Of a DNA stretch of 64,000 nt, positions 31,535 to 47,348 are shown piece after piece (within the stretch, counting starts at the first letter, position 1; every line of letters begins with the position of its first letter). A program made the translations under genes and the position numbers. This stretch comes from a virus: IMG/VR virus record IMGVR_UViG_3300046002_007411, positions 32,001 through 96,000 of that record; one strand, written 5' to 3'. The notes under the pieces are model-generated. The model was not told where the DNA came from. It saw nothing but the letters and a program-made list of their open reading frames with translations, and ran no database searches.

Positions 31535-31909
31535 ATGACACCACAGGAACTAACCGACTTGCAACAAAGATATCCCTTTCTCAGTGTAGTGCAATATCTC
31601 AACAACGAGTATCTAGGAATCATTCAACAAGCTGATCAACAGTTTATCAACATTTATGCTTGGGATGACAACTGGACTGATGTTCGCAAGAAAAGGTTTC
31701 TAGTTTGTGGTGAAACTTGGTGGTGGGAAAGCAACAGAAATATCCCCATAAATTTGTTTATGGGGCAAGACTTTCAAGAGTTTAGAACCGTATTAAAAAC
31801 TTTTGCAAGCAAAGAAAGTCGTGTAGTTCAAGGTCCCACAGTAAATCTACGTGAAATGTTAAACAAACGAGTAAAACGACGCACCATTACTTTGGTGCGC
31901 GAAGTTTAA
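31535..31909 (+). CDS. hypothetical phage protein
   Basis: AAGGA RBS; YPFLS..WWWESNRNIPINLF. Confidence 0.75.
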   Translation: MTPQELTDLQQRYPFLSVVQYLNNEYLGIIQQADQQFINIYAWDDNWTDVRKKRFLVCGETWWWESNRNIPINLFMGQDFQEFRTVLKTFASKESRVVQGPTVNLREMLNKRVKRRTITLVREV

Positions 31910-32355
31910 TCGCCTAGAGTACTAACTTTCACTCTCACTTTTACAGTTTTACCATCAGCACTGACTTTTGGTTCAAACTTAACACGCTGTTCTCTTAGAT
32001 ATTGAGTTTCTTCTTGTCGACTCCACTTTTGCCAGTGCTGCATGGTTTTCCATGCAAGCGTGCGGGCCACCAGTTCATTGTTTACAGCCAAAATAGCATA
32101 AAAATCATCACTGTTTTCCACGGCACGCAAGCGCACACTGAACTGGTCGCTTGCATGCTCGAGACTTACGAGAATATCTCGCAGTTCACGTGGCTGGCAA
32201 CGTGGATTGCGCCACATCCAAACATCACCATGCAAGCGTTGACGAAACTTACCTGCAAGTTCTGCGTCTTCAATATATCCCAAATCCCAAGTGTTGTCTT
32301 CATGCACCACATGGGCATGACATCCAAACATTGAACTGGCTAGCTGTAGCTGCAT
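31906..32355 (-). CDS. hypothetical protein
   Basis: 149 aa, GAGG RBS. Confidence 0.7.
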   Translation of the reverse strand: MQLQLASSMFGCHAHVVHEDNTWDLGYIEDAELAGKFRQRLHGDVWMWRNPRCQPRELRDILVSLEHASDQFSVRLRAVENSDDFYAILAVNNELVARTLAWKTMQHWQKWSRQEETQYLREQRVKFEPKVSADGKTVKVRVKVSTLGD

Positions 32356-32379
32356 GATTATACCTCTCTATGTGTTATA

Positions 32380-32970
32380 TTATAATGATTGTGAAACTTC
32401 GTCAACGATTATTTCTGCATGAACCTTCACCAACATGGCATAACCAAAACTATGAGATTTCCTAAAATGGTAACCTTGGTCACTGCGCTGCCAAATGTCG
32501 GGATCAGCACTAGACAGCCCATGTTCCAAACAACGATTGATAAGCCATTGTTTACCGGGTCTAATCAACGCCAAAATGATAGCAATGTCTTCTAGACTTT
32601 TAGGGGCCAATCGTGCTGTTAAATCAGCATGATTGTGAAGATGGATCAGTTGTGCAACAAACTCAGGATAAGTCATTAACTGCCAGTTGAAATCACGATC
32701 ACATAGTTCTTGCAAATGCGCAGGACTGCGGACCTTCTCGTAGACGTTTACATTGAGTATGTCAATTTTGAACAATCCCTGTTGCTGAGCTTGCTTGTAG
32801 GGCAAGCTGCAATAACCAGTAACAGGATCTTGAGGTACATTGTGGAAATACACCCCGGTGTTGTGTTTTTCCAAGCGATCATTTCTAAGCAAGCTAGCAG
32901 GAATATGTTTGATGTCTGCTAGGGCTTGCTCTCTGGCGGCCACGTCAATGTCGATATCAAAATCTATCAT
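32380..32970 (-). CDS. miniature DNA polymerase III alpha (DnaE)-like nucleotidyltransferase
   Basis: DFDIDID, KHNTGVY, GLFKIDIL, PKSLEDIAIILALIRPG and GYHFRKSHSFGYA match DnaE palm/finger motifs in order. Confidence 0.85.
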   Translation of the reverse strand: MIDFDIDIDVAAREQALADIKHIPASLLRNDRLEKHNTGVYFHNVPQDPVTGYCSLPYKQAQQQGLFKIDILNVNVYEKVRSPAHLQELCDRDFNWQLMTYPEFVAQLIHLHNHADLTARLAPKSLEDIAIILALIRPGKQWLINRCLEHGLSSADPDIWQRSDQGYHFRKSHSFGYAMLVKVHAEIIVDEVSQSL

Positions 32971-33314
32971 GTTCTCTGACGTAACCGGGTGTTTAACTGA
33001 CTGAGTCGGGACATGATTTCTCTGTGTTCCTGTTGCATCTTGGTCATTTGGGTTTTTAAATCTTGATTTTCTCGCACCAACTGTTGAATCACCTGTTCAC
33101 CGGGAACACGTTGCCGGTTACCTTGTTGGTCTGATACTACTACCCAGGCCCCCTCAATCTGCCAATCAGAAGTCTTTTTTGTCAAGGGCAGACTGTTGCT
33201 GTCATCGCTATCGTTGCTATATTGTCCGCCAAACTGTATTTGCTCAACTACCCGGGGTTCAGCTTTAATGGGAATATTCCAGATTTCTTGGGGCTCTACT
33301 AAAAACTTTTTCAT
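32967..33314 (-). CDS. hypothetical protein with C-terminal coiled coil
   Basis: Coupled to both neighbours; heptad-like C-terminus. Confidence 0.65.
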   Translation of the reverse strand: MKKFLVEPQEIWNIPIKAEPRVVEQIQFGGQYSNDSDDSNSLPLTKKTSDWQIEGAWVVVSDQQGNRQRVPGEQVIQQLVRENQDLKTQMTKMQQEHREIMSRLSQLNTRLRQRT

Positions 33315-33991
33315 TACATTCCTGCTTGTGCTAACATCTCACGGGCAAAATCTGCATCTTGTGGATGGCTTTTGAACTTGAGTTTCCACACATGAGCAGG
33401 AGCCCAGTTTTGTATCATGGACACTTGTTCATGGCTACAGCGTTGCAAAAACTCTGCACTGCTGTCGGCATTGTATATCAACCAAGGACTGATTCTGCCA
33501 TGACAAATGATTTGTGTGCCCATATTGGTATTTACCATACGAAAAAATTCGCACCAAGCTGTGTCATTTTGTTGCGCCCATTTGGCAAGATATTCCACGC
33601 TGCGAGCAAGAGCTTGATCACAATTTTCCGTTGCAATCAAGTCATGTACATACAACACCAGCAAGCTTTCTTGACACCATTTATCCACAGGTATATTGCT
33701 GCGAATAACAAAATCAATAAATGCCCGGGGAGCTACAACATCGTTTTCAATAACATAAGTGGAAAACTTGTTGAAAGCTCCATAAAATGCACTGGAAATA
33801 AAATCTTCCTGTGTGACTTTTTTCATGTTACGCATGCCACTAAGCTCATGAAATCTCTGCCAACTGTAAAACGCCAAGCGACCTTGAGCTGTGTCTCGGT
33901 TAAACCAACGTCTTTTCTTTTCACAACTGTGATTATACCAAGTTTTTTCTTTTGCAAAAAATCTTTTGCAAAACTCGCATACAAAAGTCAT
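33314..33991 (-). CDS. phage protein with N-terminal zinc finger
   Basis: CEFCKRFF...HSC. Confidence 0.75.
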   Translation of the reverse strand: MTFVCEFCKRFFAKEKTWYNHSCEKKRRWFNRDTAQGRLAFYSWQRFHELSGMRNMKKVTQEDFISSAFYGAFNKFSTYVIENDVVAPRAFIDFVIRSNIPVDKWCQESLLVLYVHDLIATENCDQALARSVEYLAKWAQQNDTAWCEFFRMVNTNMGTQIICHGRISPWLIYNADSSAEFLQRCSHEQVSMIQNWAPAHVWKLKFKSHPQDADFAREMLAQAGM

Positions 33992-34476
33992 TTTGCACTG
34001 TGGAGTTTGACTAGCTCTTGAACTTTATTTTCTGCATAACCACTAGCAACTGCTAAGTCAATCACCTGCTGCTGCGTGATAGTTGCCAGCATGATTGACA
34101 GTTCTTGACTGTTGAGTTGAGGATAATAGTTTTGTATAAGTTCCACAATGGGATTGTCGCGTCGTTTTTTTGCTCGTGCAACTGGTATCCAGGGATGAAA
34201 CTGTTTGCTGCCAGCACCTGCACAACATAGCAATAGATGCTGTAGTTCAGCATGATCCCTCAAGTCACTGAATCCAATATTGACCAGATCATTTACTGCC
34301 AAAATAGCATAAGATTGTAAAGCACTGTTGTTGGCCAAACTACTGAGATAACGCATGATCACAAAAGGACTATAAGCTCGGCGTTCTTGTTCAGTTAGTT
34401 GGCTGTAATAGTCAAGCTTTTGTGTATCAATAGCACTTAATACCTGTTTGATATCCAATGCATATTCTTTAGCCAT
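33988..34476 (-). CDS. clamp-loader small subunit-like protein (gp62-like)
   Basis: YSPFVIMRYLS...VN...LQHLLL...FHPWI pattern in the replication cluster. Confidence 0.55.
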   Translation of the reverse strand: MAKEYALDIKQVLSAIDTQKLDYYSQLTEQERRAYSPFVIMRYLSSLANNSALQSYAILAVNDLVNIGFSDLRDHAELQHLLLCCAGAGSKQFHPWIPVARAKKRRDNPIVELIQNYYPQLNSQELSIMLATITQQQVIDLAVASGYAENKVQELVKLHSAK

Positions 34477-35353
34477 GTGATGACTCCTGATAAAACAAAC
34501 TACTGTTTGGCGCCGCGACAAGATTGCGAAAAATCAACACTTCCATGGCTTTCTTGGCTTCAAAGCCTGTTTGTGTTTTTTTACGACGCCCTGCTGTATA
34601 TGTCACAGGTATTTTTACCACGTGCGCTTGCACTTTGTCAAAGAATCCGTCGCCGCTATCACGATTGCACAACCAAAAATTATCATTTTGTTCCACAGTT
34701 TTTACAAGCTTTTCCAGCTCAATATCTGGAAATGGTTGATTGTAATCAGCAAAACTATCGCGATAGGGAGGATCACAAAACACAAAGTCACAAATAGGAA
34801 CTTGGCTCCAATCACCTGACGTAATATGAACTTGTCGTTGTGTTAATGCATCGTGCCATGCTTGCAAGTTATCGGGATCATATACTTGAGTTTCTGTAAG
34901 CAAGCCACAAGGCGTGCCATAGCGATTGTTGGTGTTTTTGTTGATTTGCCAAATGCCGTTAAATCCTGTGCGCATGAGAAAATACAACACAGCAGCTTGC
35001 TGAGTTTTTGACCACTTTTCCCAATCCCATGCATGTTCTTCACGAACTTTATAATAATATGCACGGCGCTGGTCATAGTTGCCTTGCAGATATTCCTGAC
35101 TATGCTGTTGTAAACAATCGCAAAAATCTTGGAAATCGCTAACAATACTCTGATAGATGTTGATTATGTCGCTGTTGATATCGTTAATCCAGACTTCCTG
35201 TGGATTGTATTTTTCAATCACATGAGCAAACATAGCCCCGCCACCAAAAAATGGCTCACTGTAAGTCTTGATAGGAGCAGCTGGCATATAAGGTTGGTAG
35301 TATTTGAGCATTTTGCTCTTGCCACCAGCCCATTTAAACAATGGTTTAATCAA
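34469..35353 (-). CDS. Dam-family (D12 class) DNA adenine methyltransferase
   Basis: KWAGGK, EPFFGGGA, INDIN, FNG, DPPY. Confidence 0.92.
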   Translation of the reverse strand: MIKPLFKWAGGKSKMLKYYQPYMPAAPIKTYSEPFFGGGAMFAHVIEKYNPQEVWINDINSDIINIYQSIVSDFQDFCDCLQQHSQEYLQGNYDQRRAYYYKVREEHAWDWEKWSKTQQAAVLYFLMRTGFNGIWQINKNTNNRYGTPCGLLTETQVYDPDNLQAWHDALTQRQVHITSGDWSQVPICDFVFCDPPYRDSFADYNQPFPDIELEKLVKTVEQNDNFWLCNRDSGDGFFDKVQAHVVKIPVTYTAGRRKKTQTGFEAKKAMEVLIFRNLVAAPNSSLFYQESSHG

Positions 35354-35883
35354 AGGGTAATCGCCTGTTTCATGATGTTATACAGCTCTTGGTCTGTGAA
35401 ACCCTGTTCTTGCCCGTGAAAACTTGTGCCTGTTGCATGAGTTACATTCCAAACAACTGGCTTGCCTTCACAAGCCAAGGCAAAGCTTAACCCTTTATAC
35501 ATGCTATTATGCTCTTGAACACCTGGGCCACTGCAAAATGTAACATATCTTGCTTGTGGTGCCAACACATGAGCTATCCAGCGATTCATATACCATCGCT
35601 CGTGTGCGTTGCCCACTGCTCCTTGTTTTTTGCCTTCAAAAATAGCAACGATTTGGTTTTTGCTGTTATACCAAATACCACCATCCGGCTGGCAGCTGGC
35701 AAGGCCTCCGGGAATGTCCCGGGACAAAAACTTATTCACACGTCTGTAACCCTGTGGGGCTAGTTCCTGGGACAAAATCTTGCTAATATGCCGCATTCCG
35801 CGATCTAAAGCATGGCTCTGTGAGTCATATGCAGTAGTGCCTTTTTTGATACCTCCTTGAAATCCGTGGGTTCTCTGGCTCAT
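35350..35883 (-). CDS. EcoRI/MunI-like restriction endonuclease
   Basis: PDGG...EGKKQG..GNAHER parallels EcoRI PDGG/EAKHQG/GNAIER; overlaps the MTase start (TTGA). Confidence 0.72.
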   Translation of the reverse strand: MSQRTHGFQGGIKKGTTAYDSQSHALDRGMRHISKILSQELAPQGYRRVNKFLSRDIPGGLASCQPDGGIWYNSKNQIVAIFEGKKQGAVGNAHERWYMNRWIAHVLAPQARYVTFCSGPGVQEHNSMYKGLSFALACEGKPVVWNVTHATGTSFHGQEQGFTDQELYNIMKQAITL

Positions 35884-38080: not shown

Positions 38081-39535
38081 TCAGTAGTTTTCCTTGGTAA
38101 GTGCATGAGGATACTGCACTTTTTTATAATGTTGCTGGCGTTTTAGCATGTGCCTATGGCTGAACTTCATTTTACTGCAAATGTCATATATATCGACATG
38201 ATCTTTATCGTCAGCTTTGCGTAACCCTCGACCAATACTTTGGATCACACGCACAAAGCTCTTGCCGGGCTCAATCAACACAAGATTGAAAATGCGATTG
38301 ATGCTAATACCCACAGCAGTTGTGCCATACGTTGCAATCATCACAGCGTTGTCGCTGAGATTGATTTCTTTATAGTGCTCACGCCGATCGGAACTTTTCA
38401 TTTCTCCACTGATAAATGTGCTGTCGGCTATGAGATTATGTAAAGCAGTGCCTGTTGCAATGCGATCTACTAGAACAAGAGTGTTGCCTGTTGCACTGAT
38501 AGTTTTTACAAAATCTGATACCCATTTCAATCTATCATTGTTGGTAAGGAGAAACTTCAGCTCGCTTTGATAGTCTTGGTAAACTTGTGTTTCTTGAGTT
38601 TGATGTACATGAACTTGACATTGTGCCAAATGCCCGGCATCTTGCAAGTCTCTTGCTTGTAGTTGGCCAATTAAAGGCCCAATGGCTGTAAACAAGCTCA
38701 TTTGATTATACTCAGCTTCAGGCACAGTGCCTGTCAATCCCCAACGAATAGGAATATTGCTGAAAGTTGTGGTTAAGAGTCGATGTAACACTCCTAAATC
38801 TTTTACCCCGTGGCACTCATCCACAATCACAGCCACTTGCTGGTCCAGGAACACTGCCAGCTGATCGTCATCTAGGGCGTCTTTGTTTTTCTTGTCTAGA
38901 ACATTGAGACTTTGCCATGTGCAAATAGTATGTTGCCGATCAAACTCCTTGCGATCACCAAATATTACACCAACATTCAAACCCACGTTTTGATAATCTT
39001 CCAGTGTTTGTTCCACAAGATTTTTGTTGGGAACAATCACAATAGTCCTACCAATGTGTTCCACACGTCGACTCAGTGTGGCAGTGACAATGGTTTTTCC
39101 CGAGCTAGTGGGCGCAATAATCAATCCCTGGGGATTGGCAAGACATTCGTTTACCAACTGAACTTGATAATCACGTAGCACAATGGGCTCACCTTGAGCT
39201 CGATGCCCGGGTGGCCACATGCGATCACTTAGATAGGTATCATCAATAGCCGTGAGATCAAGATTATGTTTGTGACGGTCATCCACAATCTCAACATCAT
39301 ACCCTGCATCAACCAAAATAGGCAGCAGTTTATCCAAGGCATTGAGATAGGTTTTACCGCCCAGTGTGCAAAAACTTGCACAACCATCCCATCGTCCTAA
39401 TTTGAAGGCAGGACTGTATCTAGCGTGTGGCAGAAAATATTTCACAGAGTTAACAAGCTTGCGCCGATCTGTCAGCTCAACTTCCTGAATATGGACGTTG
39501 ACTTCGTCCATGATATTAATGACTACAGTGTTCAT
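38081..39535 (-). CDS. uvsW: UvsW-like SF2 helicase
   Basis: WDG, LRDYQ, APTSSGKT, VDECH, GLTGT, QSIGRGLR. Confidence 0.9.
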   Translation of the reverse strand: MNTVVINIMDEVNVHIQEVELTDRRKLVNSVKYFLPHARYSPAFKLGRWDGCASFCTLGGKTYLNALDKLLPILVDAGYDVEIVDDRHKHNLDLTAIDDTYLSDRMWPPGHRAQGEPIVLRDYQVQLVNECLANPQGLIIAPTSSGKTIVTATLSRRVEHIGRTIVIVPNKNLVEQTLEDYQNVGLNVGVIFGDRKEFDRQHTICTWQSLNVLDKKNKDALDDDQLAVFLDQQVAVIVDECHGVKDLGVLHRLLTTTFSNIPIRWGLTGTVPEAEYNQMSLFTAIGPLIGQLQARDLQDAGHLAQCQVHVHQTQETQVYQDYQSELKFLLTNNDRLKWVSDFVKTISATGNTLVLVDRIATGTALHNLIADSTFISGEMKSSDRREHYKEINLSDNAVMIATYGTTAVGISINRIFNLVLIEPGKSFVRVIQSIGRGLRKADDKDHVDIYDICSKMKFSHRHMLKRQQHYKKVQYPHALTKENY

Positions 39536-40554
39536 GTTTTTCTCATGCAGTTTTTCTCGGCAAACTTCTGCCATCGCCCGGGCATGGCAGCACGCAAGTC
39601 GGCAATTTTGGTTACTGTGCGCAGGCTAAGCTCATGCAACCTATGTACGTTGTCTTTTACAAAATCCAAAATTTCCTTTTGCTCATCGTGAGAAAAGTCA
39701 TAACTGCCCAAGAGGTTGTGCTTGTTGACTACATTGGTGATATGCAAAAGTTTTTCACGTGTGGTGTTGATGCCCAAATCCATGTAATGGCACCGACTCA
39801 TGATTGCAGCAAGATGATTTTGAATCCTGGGGCTGCGAACTTGATCAAACTTGATATTGGTAATAAAAACAATACCACCGCGATATTCAAAACTGTTGGG
39901 AATGTCTTGTTTGACAAGATTTCTGTTTTGGCTGCCCCAGTGAATCATGCGTGTTTTACGACTATCAAGAGCAGCTTTGAGAACGTTCAAGCTGTCATCA
40001 TCGTATAGCACACTGTCACAGTCGTCAAACACCAGCACTTGGCCTTCACCGCGATATTCCCAAAGTTTTTCATAAAGGCAAATACCCGACATGTCGCCGT
40101 GAATGCATTCAAACAAGCTGCGATTTTGCATGGCTTGTTTGATTGCCAGTGCCCGATGCAAGCGATTTTCCACAGTGTGACTTTTGCCAATACCACTGGG
40201 ACCGCTGACTACAAGGCCTTTAACAATGTTGCTGGCAACAGCATCCGTCATTTCACCAAGGATTTCAAAAGTTTCATCAATGTCTTGTTGAATCTCTTGA
40301 TCTGTTAGTTGGAGAATATTGGGATCTGTGTCTGCTGCAACAACCACCGGAGCACTCACGGGCTGATAATCATCAGCATGGTCGATGTAAAGACGGTTTT
40401 TTCCACGACGTAGACCGTCGCTGCCGTTGCCCCAGACAACTAGAAACTTGCCGTTGTGATCGCGTTTGATGCCACCTTGCGTTTCCACTGTGACGTTTTG
40501 CACACAACTGCCGTTGCCCAGTCTACCTTGTTTAACAAGCACGTAGCTCTTCAT
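39532..40554 (-). CDS. P-loop (AAA+-like) ATPase
   Basis: GPSGIGKS, VFDDCD, LNVLKAALD, FITN, SR. Confidence 0.85.
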   Translation of the reverse strand: MKSYVLVKQGRLGNGSCVQNVTVETQGGIKRDHNGKFLVVWGNGSDGLRRGKNRLYIDHADDYQPVSAPVVVAADTDPNILQLTDQEIQQDIDETFEILGEMTDAVASNIVKGLVVSGPSGIGKSHTVENRLHRALAIKQAMQNRSLFECIHGDMSGICLYEKLWEYRGEGQVLVFDDCDSVLYDDDSLNVLKAALDSRKTRMIHWGSQNRNLVKQDIPNSFEYRGGIVFITNIKFDQVRSPRIQNHLAAIMSRCHYMDLGINTTREKLLHITNVVNKHNLLGSYDFSHDEQKEILDFVKDNVHRLHELSLRTVTKIADLRAAMPGRWQKFAEKNCMRKT

Positions 40555-40582
40555 TGTCAACCTTGTTTGCAATTTGACCTTC

Positions 40583-40610
40583 ACTATAACATATGTTTAG
40601 GGGTTGTCAA
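40583..40610 (-). promoter_or_regulatory. sigma70-type early promoter
   Basis: TTGACA-N16-TATAGT with TGn extension. Confidence 0.65.
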
Positions 40611-43665: not shown

Positions 43666-44898
43666 TCACAACCCAGCTAGCTTCTTGACACGGCTGACAT
43701 CAGGATTGGTGTTCATCCCCACTAGTTTTTTCAAGTGATCTTGAGTTTCACTGGGGTTGATTTCCCATTGCTCACGCCACCAGTCGTTGCTGGACACCAA
43801 AAACTTCAAAGTAGCTGAAACAGCTTGCTCATTGGAGCCTAGGTCCAGTTGATAATCTTGCCAAGCCTCTTGTGCTTGACTTTCTGCTTGACCAATCTGA
43901 TCTTCCTGAATAACCACTTCAGTATCACTTAACCAATCTTGAAACTCTTCAAGTTCAGGTTTGGGTATGGATTTTTCCATACCCAACCATTGCTCTAATA
44001 CTTCTTGATGATCGGGACAATGCTGCTCGACAACTGGCCGTAACCAAGGTGCAAGAGCTGTTTTACGGAACTCCCGCATATTGGAATGACTGCTATGATA
44101 TCCACGGGGACCACTCCAAGATTGCAGTTCATTGTTAATGTCATGCATGTGTTGATGAATTTCAGCTAGAGTTGGCAAAAGTTCATTTTGTAGTTGGGCA
44201 GGTTGGCGTAGTTTTCTAGCCGCGCTTTTTAAAACACCATAATGCTCACTTAGTGTTTTAAGGTAGCTGCTGACTTCATCATGAGCTTGCCCGCCTTGGC
44301 TCAAATGTCTTGCCCAGGCTCTTGCACCTTTTACATGACGAGTAGGCCAACCAAGACGTTCGCCTTGATCAGTTTCCACAAATATCTTGTGTATTTTGCG
44401 CCAACGACTTCCCGGGGTATCTTCATTTACAATATCACTGTGTCTAACTATCATGCGACAGTTGCCCACACGTTGAAAGGAACTGCGGGTTGTGCCCCAA
44501 GGACGGCTGATGTCACGACTTTCTTCAACTGGTGGCTTTTTGGCTTCAATGTCTTTATCAAACTGAAACCAGTTGACACTTACGCCTTCTTTGTCGTTTA
44601 TGTTTTTACGCAACCACATATGTAAACTGAACAAATCGTTGAAATCTTGGGTGTTTCTCATGCGAGGAGTTTGTAAATCCACATGACTGTGGCTGTCCTC
44701 GTCATGTAAACTAATCAAAATGTCATATGATTTGATATTGGGATCATGAGGATCTGCTACTGTGGCATAAAACTGTCGAGCATCTTCAATCTTGAATGTT
44801 TCTTTTATGTCTTCATCAAACATTTTTTTGACTTGCATGCCACGAGCTTTTAATATGCCATGTATTTTTTGTGTGATGATGTCCCAGTTAGGTGTCAT
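43666..44898 (-). CDS. hypothetical late protein
   Basis: 410 aa, GGAG RBS, TAAATA 44916-44921. Confidence 0.75.
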   Translation of the reverse strand: MTPNWDIITQKIHGILKARGMQVKKMFDEDIKETFKIEDARQFYATVADPHDPNIKSYDILISLHDEDSHSHVDLQTPRMRNTQDFNDLFSLHMWLRKNINDKEGVSVNWFQFDKDIEAKKPPVEESRDISRPWGTTRSSFQRVGNCRMIVRHSDIVNEDTPGSRWRKIHKIFVETDQGERLGWPTRHVKGARAWARHLSQGGQAHDEVSSYLKTLSEHYGVLKSAARKLRQPAQLQNELLPTLAEIHQHMHDINNELQSWSGPRGYHSSHSNMREFRKTALAPWLRPVVEQHCPDHQEVLEQWLGMEKSIPKPELEEFQDWLSDTEVVIQEDQIGQAESQAQEAWQDYQLDLGSNEQAVSATLKFLVSSNDWWREQWEINPSETQDHLKKLVGMNTNPDVSRVKKLAGL

Positions 44899-44918
44899 TA
44901 TTAGTCTCCTGGCGATAT

Positions 44919-46511
44919 TTATCTAAAGGCCATGGTCATGGGAAGAGGTTCCATGAGTTCTTGATCGTCAAAATCGTCCCGTAGCAAATCACCAATTTTT
45001 TCGTCCCAGTTTTGCAATATTTGCATCATACGAACTGACAACATCATGCTCATCACACAGTCGTCGTGTTCTCCTGATTTGGCGGAAAAACTATCACCCT
45101 TGCTGATAAAGAACTTCAGTTGTCGTATCAACATCTTGCTATGCGGAATTAAACGGTTGCTTTCAATAAGTGTTTTAAGCTTGCTGCATGCCATGGCTTT
45201 TGTTCTCATATTGGTATTGAGACCTTTCCTGCTACGGCCTGAGGTTACGTTTCTTCTTGGTTCATGCACAAACTGTCCGGCAAATCTTTCTTCACCTATT
45301 TCATTAATACTAACAAGTGCAGCTTCGCCCCAGGTATTGTTTTCCAAAGTCCAAAATATATCAGGATCGCCTCTATGTCCTTTTTGCTTGCATTCGTTGT
45401 AAATGAACTCCAGTATTTTCATGAGAGTCTGTACTTGCCCGGGAATAGGTGTTAGATTATGACACCATTCGGCTACTTGTTCCATGTCCGGCAAACTCCA
45501 TACACTGATTGCAGCGTAGTCTTTGCCAATACCAGCACTGGGATCTAAACCAACAAGGTAAGTTTTATTAGCCTCGATATTTTTATACCATCGGATTTGT
45601 TGTGTTTTGAAAATTGGCTCCTGTCCGGTAAGTCGTTGCAAAGTTATACCACTTATAAGTGTTTCACTTTCACCTGCAAACTGGCACTCAAACTCTCGGA
45701 GAAATCTTTCTTGTCCAATTTTGTTGCGTTCTCGCTGTGCCCAGGTTTCGTCGCGTCCAGGAACTTCACTGTAATGTGCTGTAAATGCACGAAACCCGTT
45801 TATTCCCATGCCTTCAGCATTTTCATTGCCGTATTCATCAGTCAACTTGTTGGCACCAAACCACAACTCAGCAAACATGTCTTCGTCACTTTTGGGAGTG
45901 GTGGTAATAATACACCGGCCACCAGTGCTTAATGTGGGACTTATACTGGCCCAAAACTCCGTGGCAATATTGGTTTTCACGAAGGCAAACTCATCGAGAT
46001 ACAACAAGCTGATACTCATGCCTCGTCCACTATCAGCAGTGGTGGTAGTTGCCACAATACGACTGCCGTTATCAAAAGCAATGTCTTGTTGATTGTATTT
46101 TGTTACACCCGGACGCAAAAAGTCCGGCAACTCCTCGTAAGCATATTTCACACGCATCATGATTTCACTTGCTGCCTTGAACTTGTGTGCAGCAATCAAG
46201 ATAGTCACGTCGTTGTTAAAACATGCATACCACAGCAAATAAGCAGCACTGCTGGCTGTTTTGCCACTTTGGCGAGGAATCATACATATGCTATTGGTAT
46301 ATTTCCAATATGTAGTAACTAGTTTTTTTTGGAACTCCCATAGTTTAAAGGGCTGTCGACCTTTTGTGGGATGTTGCACGTAAATGTAGTTTTCAATAAA
46401 ATAAAGTGGATCACTTGCACACTTTAAAAGTTCTTGAAACTGCTCGCGAGTATATTGAGTTTTTTGATAAGGAGTTTTGACTTTTATAAAGCTCTGTGCT
46501 ATTTGTGCCAT
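44919..46511 (-). CDS. terminase large subunit (gp17-like)
   Basis: PRQSGKT, RG, LLYLDEFAF, REFECQF, GLDPSAG, HDDCVM; no intein. Confidence 0.96.
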   Translation of the reverse strand: MAQIAQSFIKVKTPYQKTQYTREQFQELLKCASDPLYFIENYIYVQHPTKGRQPFKLWEFQKKLVTTYWKYTNSICMIPRQSGKTASSAAYLLWYACFNNDVTILIAAHKFKAASEIMMRVKYAYEELPDFLRPGVTKYNQQDIAFDNGSRIVATTTTADSGRGMSISLLYLDEFAFVKTNIATEFWASISPTLSTGGRCIITTTPKSDEDMFAELWFGANKLTDEYGNENAEGMGINGFRAFTAHYSEVPGRDETWAQRERNKIGQERFLREFECQFAGESETLISGITLQRLTGQEPIFKTQQIRWYKNIEANKTYLVGLDPSAGIGKDYAAISVWSLPDMEQVAEWCHNLTPIPGQVQTLMKILEFIYNECKQKGHRGDPDIFWTLENNTWGEAALVSINEIGEERFAGQFVHEPRRNVTSGRSRKGLNTNMRTKAMACSKLKTLIESNRLIPHSKMLIRQLKFFISKGDSFSAKSGEHDDCVMSMMLSVRMMQILQNWDEKIGDLLRDDFDDQELMEPLPMTMAFR

Positions 46512-46514
46512 AGT

Positions 46515-46730
46515 TTAATTTAGCTTGTAGAGACCAATTACATTACTATAATCTCGCCATTCCCTGTCATCTACACTTATCACAACTTTATTAATAGTGG
46601 CTGAAATATTTTTCCGCCAATAGTTCAAAAAACCATGAGTTCGTCGCAACTCTGGCACTATGTCTGTATAGCTCCAAACAAACTCTTGTAACAGGCTGGG
46701 ATAGTCGGGCATCCAATATGTCAACTGCAA
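46515..46730 (-). CDS. Usg-family protein (start uncertain)
   Basis: YWMPDYPSLLQEFVW..D..PE......FL.YW matches the Usg pattern. Confidence 0.75.
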   Translation of the reverse strand: MQLTYWMPDYPSLLQEFVWSYTDIVPELRRTHGFLNYWRKNISATINKVVISVDDREWRDYSNVIGLYKLN

Positions 46731-46766
46731 AACTACATTACGCTTTGCGGTTAAAATCCATGATGC

Positions 46767-47348
46767 TTATCCTTTTGTTACTTTCTGTCGGCGAATAGTT
46801 GACATGGGACTCATGCTGCCATCGTCTTGAGGTTTATCCCCAGCAAATGGATCCTTGTCAAACTCAGCCTTTGTGGGATCAGTTAACGGGCTAGCTTGTC
46901 CATCTTCATTGTTGAACTCTTCCGCTAGGAACTTTTGCCAGTTGGCTTGTAGTTGATTGTGCAGTTGCTCAGCGAGAGGGTTGTTACCAACATGCGCAAT
47001 ACGTTGAGGCTCTTTGGGGCCGTTCCAAGTATATGTTTCCACATCAAGAGGTTCACCTTGATCATCAACTTCCTGGTGGCTGTGATCATAATCAGCAGTC
47101 TCTGCCATGTCTTCATGATCGCATTGGCAATCTTGATGTCCACAAGTATCACAAACTTCTTGATGATCGTCATGCATGTGACTGGCAATGGGTTGGCTGT
47201 CAGGAGCACTTACATAACCCACGGGCTTTTCCACACCTGCCAACGCCAGCAAACGTTGCAGCATGGCAGGATCATCTGTGCTGATGTTGCTGCTGCTGGT
47301 TGTTGATCCATCTTGACTGTTGACAGTCAATGTATATGTGGTTGTCAT
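46767..47348 (-). CDS. acidic hypothetical (probable head) protein
   Basis: LLALAGV motif, His/Cys patch, LAE sites. Confidence 0.65.
   Translation of the reverse strand: MTTTYTLTVNSQDGSTTSSSNISTDDPAMLQRLLALAGVEKPVGYVSAPDSQPIASHMHDDHQEVCDTCGHQDCQCDHEDMAETADYDHSHQEVDDQGEPLDVETYTWNGPKEPQRIAHVGNNPLAEQLHNQLQANWQKFLAEEFNNEDGQASPLTDPTKAEFDKDPFAGDKPQDDGSMSPMSTIRRQKVTKG

Follow-up and report, generated by a model that had tools for sequence, protein, structure and literature searches.

Can a 196-aa viral protein that carries the catalytic motifs of bacterial DNA polymerase III alpha (DnaE) work as a polymerase on its own? The question is raised by a minus-strand ORF in a 64,000-nucleotide stretch of DNA, here called the window (positions 32,001 to 96,000 of IMG/VR virus record IMGVR_UViG_3300046002_007411), part of a 111.7-kb viral record with an estimated completeness of ~27%. 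An earlier note made from the sequence of the window had read the ORF as a minimal Pol III alpha core in a T4-like replisome. A split minimal Pol III alpha has been described from sequence in group 2.2 jumbo phages by Iyer, Anantharaman, Krishnan, Burroughs, and Aravind (Iyer et al. 2021, Viruses 13:63, PMC7824862); there, one protein, the N-terminal part, binds NTP, and a second, the C-terminal part, binds Mg2+ and template. The genes for the two lie far apart in genomes that also encode a family B polymerase but no other Pol III domains. We are confident that the 196-aa protein is one half of this split enzyme, and it probably serves as the C-terminal subunit of a minimal family-C nucleotidyltransferase made of two chains. 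We refer to it and its homologs as the C-half and to the partner as the N-half.

Identity, fold, and missing parts of the C-half

The 196-aa ORF is a real gene under strong selection. Its dN/dS against relatives 98% and 89% identical in protein was 0.04 to 0.05, indicating strong purifying selection rather than the relaxed selection that the earlier note had named as grounds for refutation. The protein matched PHROG 11778 ("DNA polymerase") with an E value of 8.2e-54, residues 4-190 corresponding to profile positions 7-193 of 197, and matched gp16 of phage 121Q with an E value of 9e-34. Identity to the best cultured-phage protein did not exceed 43%, and megablast of the region against cultured phages gave no match, so the lineage is one without a close cultured relative.

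At the sequence level, the link to DnaE is marginal. Pfam DNA_pol3_finger scored 20.4 bits, below its cut-off of 22, and Pfam searches with PF07733 (DNA_pol3_alpha) gave no match on the 196-aa protein or anywhere on the contig. A profile of 57 diverse C-half sequences (alignment A1) ranked Pol III alpha chains first among sequences of solved structures, at a marginal E value of 0.006, and three segments (DIDIDF, the finger segment ALxRPG, and FxKSHA) matched in DnaE order. Residues D7, D9, K68, D70, R137, P138, and H173 were invariant in the alignment, while D5 was at least 90% conserved. They belong to a DxDxD strand (D5, D7, and D9, equivalent to D401, D403, and D405 of E. coli alpha), a K68-I-D70 motif bearing the third Asp (K553 and D555), the finger RPG motif at 137-139 (R639-P-G), and a KSH motif at 171-173 (K758-S-H760).

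The fold was more decisive. The AlphaFold2 model of the protein (pLDDT 91.5, pTM 0.82) was compared exhaustively with solved structures, and the best match was Taq Pol III alpha (Z 10.3, with 192 of 196 residues aligned to chain 459-838), followed by Mycobacterium tuberculosis DnaE1 (Z 10.2), PolC (Z 9.3), and residues 398-781 of E. coli alpha (Z 8.8). The top seven matches were all family-C polymerases (Z 7.1 to 10.3, 187-192 residues aligned), and the first unrelated chain scored Z 4.4. Likewise, the top 15 Foldseek matches were Pol III alpha or PolC without exception. The comparisons with DnaE that the earlier note had proposed thus pointed to family C only, and its observation that the DnaE motifs occur in order, with equivalents of the three catalytic Asp residues, was confirmed by conservation, mapping to E. 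coli alpha, and fold.

The protein was said to start at the palm and end just after the KSH helix. It does terminate at the helix bearing KSH, but it opens midway through the palm, with the metal-binding strand. The half of the catalytic fold that binds nucleotide is thus absent: the protein has neither the RGS nucleotide-binding loop (E. coli R362-G-S) nor the first half of the Pol-beta-like fold. The PHP, thumb, HhH/clamp-binding, and OB regions are missing as well, and Pfam, fold, and sequence searches agreed with the earlier note that no flanking ORF supplies them. What is left has been pared down. About 190 of the 384 residues in the E. coli 398-781 span have no counterpart; the D405-K553 interval, which is 148 residues and includes the thumb in E. 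coli, is reduced to 59, and the G641-K758 interval is reduced from 117 residues to 32. The judgment that the protein is too small for a stand-alone replicase and represents a drastically reduced DnaE-type catalytic fragment was sound.

The partner gene and natural fusions

Six complete relatives, five cultured and one uncultured, were used to look for the missing half. In 6/6, a distant gene encodes an N-half of ~170-180 aa (121Q gp56 type) that carries the RGS loop. In 121Q, whose C-half is gp16, the partner gp56 (172 aa) is ~31 kb away and ends with a G-R-G-S-S motif followed by EFLKW. Pfam DNA_pol3_alpha scored above its curated cut-off at the N-half gene in all five cultured relatives (profile positions 16-98), and the last ~70 residues of gp56 homologs match true DnaE genes of full length in Bacillus and Streptomyces phages. 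The two halves are complementary: on E. coli alpha, the N-half covers residues 285-392 and the C-half residues 398-781, with no overlap, gap, or intein between them. The N-half stops 2-3 residues past the equivalent of E. coli residue 392, and the C-half starts at about 398. There is no extra sequence at the junctions, as N-halves end 2-6 residues past the EFL motif and the C-half starts with M-I-D-F-D. Because no intein halves are present at the junctions, the two phage chains would have to associate non-covalently. The 196-aa protein as a self-sufficient minimal core, the term used in the earlier note, is not supported, because the RGS loop is missing from it and is found on a separate gene in the complete relatives.

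A family B polymerase (PolB) was encoded by 5/5 cultured relatives and by the complete uncultured one (1/1), while the PHP domain and HhH (HHH_6) were each found in 0/5 of the complete cultured relatives. The possibility raised earlier that other DnaE domains are encoded elsewhere, as in a simple split gene, therefore holds for the N-terminal half of the palm but not for PHP, thumb, clamp-binding, or OB regions, which were nowhere in the relatives.

The halves also occur together on a larger scale. The C-half is present in 96 cultured jumbo phages, each time as a protein of ~190-210 aa, and the number of phages with a C-half equals the number with an N-half in Escherichia (34/34), Pseudomonas (11/11), Salmonella (8/8), and Erwinia (8/8) phages. 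Of eight large uncultured contigs with a C-half, the N-half and PolB were found in the complete one only (G001, 328 kb with terminal repeats, which encodes all three proteins); the other seven, which are fragments 8-42% complete, had neither the N-half (0/7) nor PolB (0/7). When 1.84 billion representatives were searched exhaustively with a profile, at least 546 C-half clusters came back, 115 of them below 1e-30. Nearly all begin within residues 1-8, run to fewer than ~230 aa, and are stand-alone proteins of ~190-215 aa. The median length of 270 fetched family proteins was 198 aa.

Three of the 270 fetched proteins (two clusters) were natural fusions of the two halves. In the metagenomic protein P0161 (375 aa), the N-half profile matched over its full length at residues 8-180 (E 6e-37) and the C-half lay at 189-371. 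P0268, also metagenomic (336 aa), has both halves fused with a shorter N-terminal part, as does P0270, again of 336 aa. P0161 was seen once, on a 2.4-kb contig, and P0268 on two contigs. A word-indexed search for longer or fused homologs had found none; since the exhaustive search recovered two fused clusters, this first negative reflects a limit of sensitivity. Scans of viral contigs for fused forms gave no match. On sequence grounds, the fusions provide direct evidence that both halves would make one enzyme.

No N-half was found on the 111.7-kb contig itself. A six-frame search with a six-sequence N-half profile gave a best E value of 0.21, in an unrelated region, and a scan for the G-R-G-S motif hit unrelated proteins only. 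Searches of the contig by phmmer with E. coli DnaE gave nothing better than E 1.6, and those with 121Q gp56 gave an unrelated match at E 0.08. These searches ruled out every contig ORF as the N-half. PolB and the genes of the N-half module (gp57-like, GroES-like, and gp44-like clamp loader) were not found on the contig either. The family B polymerase and further DnaE pieces for which the earlier note had suggested a check were thus seen in the complete relatives, and neither was found on this ~27%-complete contig. The contig and 121Q share the gene order terminase, SSB, UvsX, UvsY, UvsW, C-half, primase, helicase, ribonucleotide reductase, and topoisomerase II. This synteny breaks off near contig position 33,200; from the corresponding point, 121Q goes on to the N-half module. 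The absence of the N-half from the contig is uninformative because the contig is so incomplete and because the seven comparable fragments are also without an N-half. We infer that the partner is encoded in the ~73% of the genome that the contig does not cover.

Two further ORFs of the contig were recorded. The first follows the point, a little beyond the topoisomerase II medium subunit, where synteny with 121Q is lost (window ~1-1213, contig ~32000-33213). This 334-aa ORF (contig 31719-32723, minus strand, reaching beyond the start of the window) carries an R-G-S-G motif whose surroundings look to us like those of a PP-loop/TilS-type enzyme. A phage TilS is mentioned in the PA5oct paper. The second, of 350 aa, lies between the genes for the UvsW-like helicase and UvsY, in the place of 121Q gp9 ("DNA polymerase exonuclease subunit"), and shows no similarity to gp9 at E 1e-4.

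Gene neighbourhood of the two halves

The surroundings of the C-half (Table 1) were compared across 80 uncultured loci, with counts for primase and helicase limited by flank length. The replisome context was conserved across them, in keeping with the T4-like replication-module setting that had been proposed.

Table 1. Features around the C-half gene, in window coordinates
Feature	Position	Strand	Match or remark
DnaB/T4 gp41-type replicative helicase, 465 aa	28226..29623	-	PHROG 19, E 2e-72
Primase, DnaG/T4 gp61-type, 345 aa	29613..30650	-	PHROG 47, E 5e-18
C-half of split minimal Pol III alpha, 196 aa	32380..32970	-	Mg2+- and template-binding
115-aa coiled-coil ORF	32967..33314	-	Weak coiled-coil Pfam matches only
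225-aa zinc-finger protein with helical body	33314..33991	-	PHROG 11058, E 4e-54
177-aa ORF, candidate gp62-like small clamp-loader subunit	33988..34521	-	PHROG 11758, E 1.5e-28; probable start 34476 (162 aa)
Dam-type methyltransferase with overlapping 177-aa ORF (35350-35883)	34469..35883	-	Methyltransferase: Pfam MethyltransfD12, E 9e-32; 177-aa ORF: PHROG 2400
350-aa ORF	39532..40584	-	PHROG 1250 (unknown function), E 1e-80

Four consecutive genes (32380-34521), for the 177-aa, 225-aa, and 115-aa proteins and the C-half, overlap by 1-4 nt, and the ATG of the C-half overlaps the TGA stop of the 115-aa ORF (ATGA). The string is probably translationally coupled, and the overlaps possibly reflect a stoichiometric complex. 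The 115-aa ORF is fast-evolving: its sequence was recognisable in 4/80 loci, though a gap of matching size is usual, and 121Q gp15 is its positional equivalent. The 225-aa protein was found in 75/80 loci, upstream of the C-half and on the same strand. Its N-terminal C2H2/C2HC finger (zinc-finger match E 9e-5) has invariant C5, C8, H21, and C23, and its AlphaFold2 model (pLDDT 92.9) has an all-helical body with no clear fold match (best Z 5.1). Residues 124-224 resemble the C-domain of the T4 gp59 helicase loader weakly (Z 4.1); this model-based resemblance is only a lead. The 225-aa protein was rejected as the missing part of DnaE, as its confident model has no DnaE-like match.

The 177-aa ORF that heads the overlapping string was present in 71/80 loci. 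It matched PHROG 225 ("clamp loader") weakly, at E 3.8e-4, and 13% of the members of its Atlas neighbour cluster carry Pfam Phage_clamp_A (TM 0.74). It had no match among solved-structure sequences, clamp loaders included, and its cultured-phage homologs are annotated as hypothetical. The gp62-like label is accordingly a lead, not an established assignment. As a source of the missing part of DnaE, this protein was set aside, with no match to a solved sequence.

The earlier note had placed the C-half in a methyltransferase-gp62-zinc finger operon near helicase and primase genes. The zinc-finger and 177-aa genes are indeed conserved at this position, but the Dam methylase occurred in 4/80 loci, which rules out a conserved methyltransferase operon, and the 177-aa ORF adjacent to it occurred in 2/80. 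On comparison of the loci, this pair is a lineage-specific insertion into a conserved replication operon. The primase lies downstream of the C-half in the conserved module (59/80 loci) and scored 24.2 bits with Pfam DNAG_N, just under the cut-off. It had been called degenerate, yet its zinc-ribbon Cys residues and Toprim residues E236-G237, D240, D274, and D304 are kept in at least 95% of 51 sequences. The helicase is a homolog of 121Q gp20 (E 6e-96) and was present in 43/80 loci. An opposite-strand 124-aa ORF (77/80) and a 270-aa structural-like protein (72/80) were also frequent, and several neighbours of the C-half in 121Q are annotated as virion proteins.

In the relatives, three genes lie downstream of the N-half gene on its own strand: a small ORF, a GroES-like gene, and one for a gp44-like clamp-loader large subunit. 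This module was seen in 121Q (44257-46821), Atu_ph07 (locus L004), PA5oct (L005), and the complete uncultured relative (L095). One clamp-loader gene is therefore found beside each half: a gp44-like gene by the N-half and the candidate gp62-like gene heading the C-half string.

Proposed enzyme, rival readings, and known systems

The assignment of the C-half to a two-chain enzyme is based on fold, residue conservation, selection, the complementary halves, their co-occurrence in complete relatives, and the natural fusions. In the proposed enzyme, the C-half would give the metal-binding strands, with D5, D7, and D70 (E. coli D401, D403, and D555) and K68 (K553), together with a pared-down finger module whose RPG and KSH motifs position the template and the incoming nucleotide in DnaE. 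The N-half would give the first half of the Pol-beta-like fold and the RGS loop that holds the triphosphate. The active site would exist only upon non-covalent association of both chains, with no intein involved. A family-C active site would then be built across a protein-protein interface, with every catalytic residue kept in ~370 residues over two chains, compared with 1160 residues in E. coli. The anatomy and the gene neighbourhood suggest a role. Our best guess, offered tentatively, is that the enzyme may be a distributive auxiliary DNA polymerase that works beside the family B replicase in short-patch synthesis, such as primer extension, gap filling, or repair. A distributive, non-proofreading, auxiliary role is suggested because the thumb, clamp-binding, OB, and PHP regions have been lost, because proofreading parts are absent, and because the genes sit in replication modules. 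Our literature search found no paper showing polymerase activity, biochemical or genetic, for any member of the family, in line with the earlier note's statement that no function is established.

Other readings were weighed against this one. The 196-aa protein, alone or with its neighbours, might act as a self-sufficient nucleotidyltransferase, making or extending primers in compensation for a degenerate primase. The three metal-binding Asp residues and the finger motifs are all on this one chain, the gene is two genes from the primase, and the N-half is not on the contig. We consider this very improbable, as the chain has neither the RGS loop for triphosphate binding nor the strand and helix that open the Pol-beta-like fold, its partner is present in 6/6 complete relatives and fused to it in rare proteins, the primase keeps its catalytic residues, and neither conserved neighbour has a DnaE-like or nucleotidyltransferase fold. 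It is also conceivable that the products of the two genes do form an enzyme, which is not a templated DNA polymerase and instead serves in template-independent tailing, in making a nucleotide signal of phage-host conflict, or in modification of DNA ends. The Pol-beta-like fold supports many nucleotidyl-transfer chemistries, the thumb, clamp-binding, and OB regions that hold primer-template are missing, and the relatives show that such a phage already has a family B replicase. That reading is nevertheless unlikely: RPG and KSH, which contact template and dNTP in DnaE, are kept and invariant, the fold matches family-C polymerases exclusively and no other nucleotidyltransferases, and both halves are in replication modules rather than in defence or counter-defence islands.

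That the protein is catalytically dead, a relic that serves the replisome or virion structurally or as a regulator, is scarcely credible. Several of the 121Q neighbours carry virion annotations and activity is on record for no member, but every catalytic position is invariant in 57 diverse sequences, dN/dS is very low, and both halves are kept across hundreds of lineages. A further idea involves the clamp loader. Because the C-half ends a string headed by a candidate gp62-like gene and the N-half lies in a conserved gp44-like module, the split enzyme could be a second replisomal polymerase physically tied to the clamp loader, with polymerase assembly coupled to clamp-loader assembly, much as alpha is to tau in bacteria. 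The chance of this seems small to us; if true, it would imply a two-polymerase fork in T4-like phages, with a family B enzyme plus a minimal family-C enzyme for primer extension or the lagging strand.

Among known systems, Bacillus subtilis offers a functional analogy to the auxiliary polymerase proposed here. Its DnaE, a second, non-proofreading family-C polymerase, extends RNA primers and then hands off to PolC. The likeness, which is one of function only, is that a second family-C polymerase stands beside the main replicase. In the phages, by contrast, the main replicase is family B, and primer extension, clamp binding, and hand-off would be conjecture for the split enzyme.

Compared with bacterial DnaE (E. 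coli, Taq, and M. tuberculosis DnaE1) and PolC, the C-half has the same palm and finger fold (E. coli 398-781) and an identical catalytic Asp triad, K553 equivalent, and RPG and KSH motifs. It differs in having no thumb, PHP, HhH/clamp-binding, OB, or tau-binding region and in scoring below the DNA_pol3_alpha cut-off, and the phage catalytic fold is spread over two polypeptides, with the break between the RGS helix and the DxD strand. Cyanobacteria, too, encode a family-C polymerase in two genes far apart; there, the products of dnaE-n and dnaE-c are joined by trans-splicing of a split intein. The phage halves share the two distant genes with this system but have no intein, and they are cut inside the active site.

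The closest comparison is with the C-terminal unit of Iyer et al. (PHROG 11778, e.g., 121Q gp16). The 196-aa protein resembles it in size, catalytic residues, and full-length profile match, in its zinc-finger protein, primase, and helicase neighbours, and in the T4-like group 2.2 type of its genome. It differs in belonging to an uncultured lineage with at most 43% identity to cultured members, in that the N-terminal unit and PolB are not on the available fragment, and in the Dam methylase and adjacent 177-aa ORF inserted upstream in this lineage only. The 196-aa ORF is a divergent, uncultured member of the published kind and leaves the published picture unchanged. In that picture, the split enzyme was suggested to cooperate with the family B enzyme in the synthesis of one strand, or in repair, and the split form was put forward as a model for the ancestral module of Pol III (PMC7824862). 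To it, our analysis adds the rare fusions, which go beyond the split forms alone described by Iyer et al., the neighbourhood numbers, and the presence of each half beside a putative clamp-loader gene. The distribution of the split mini Pol III is wide, covering hundreds of giant T4-like phage lineages.
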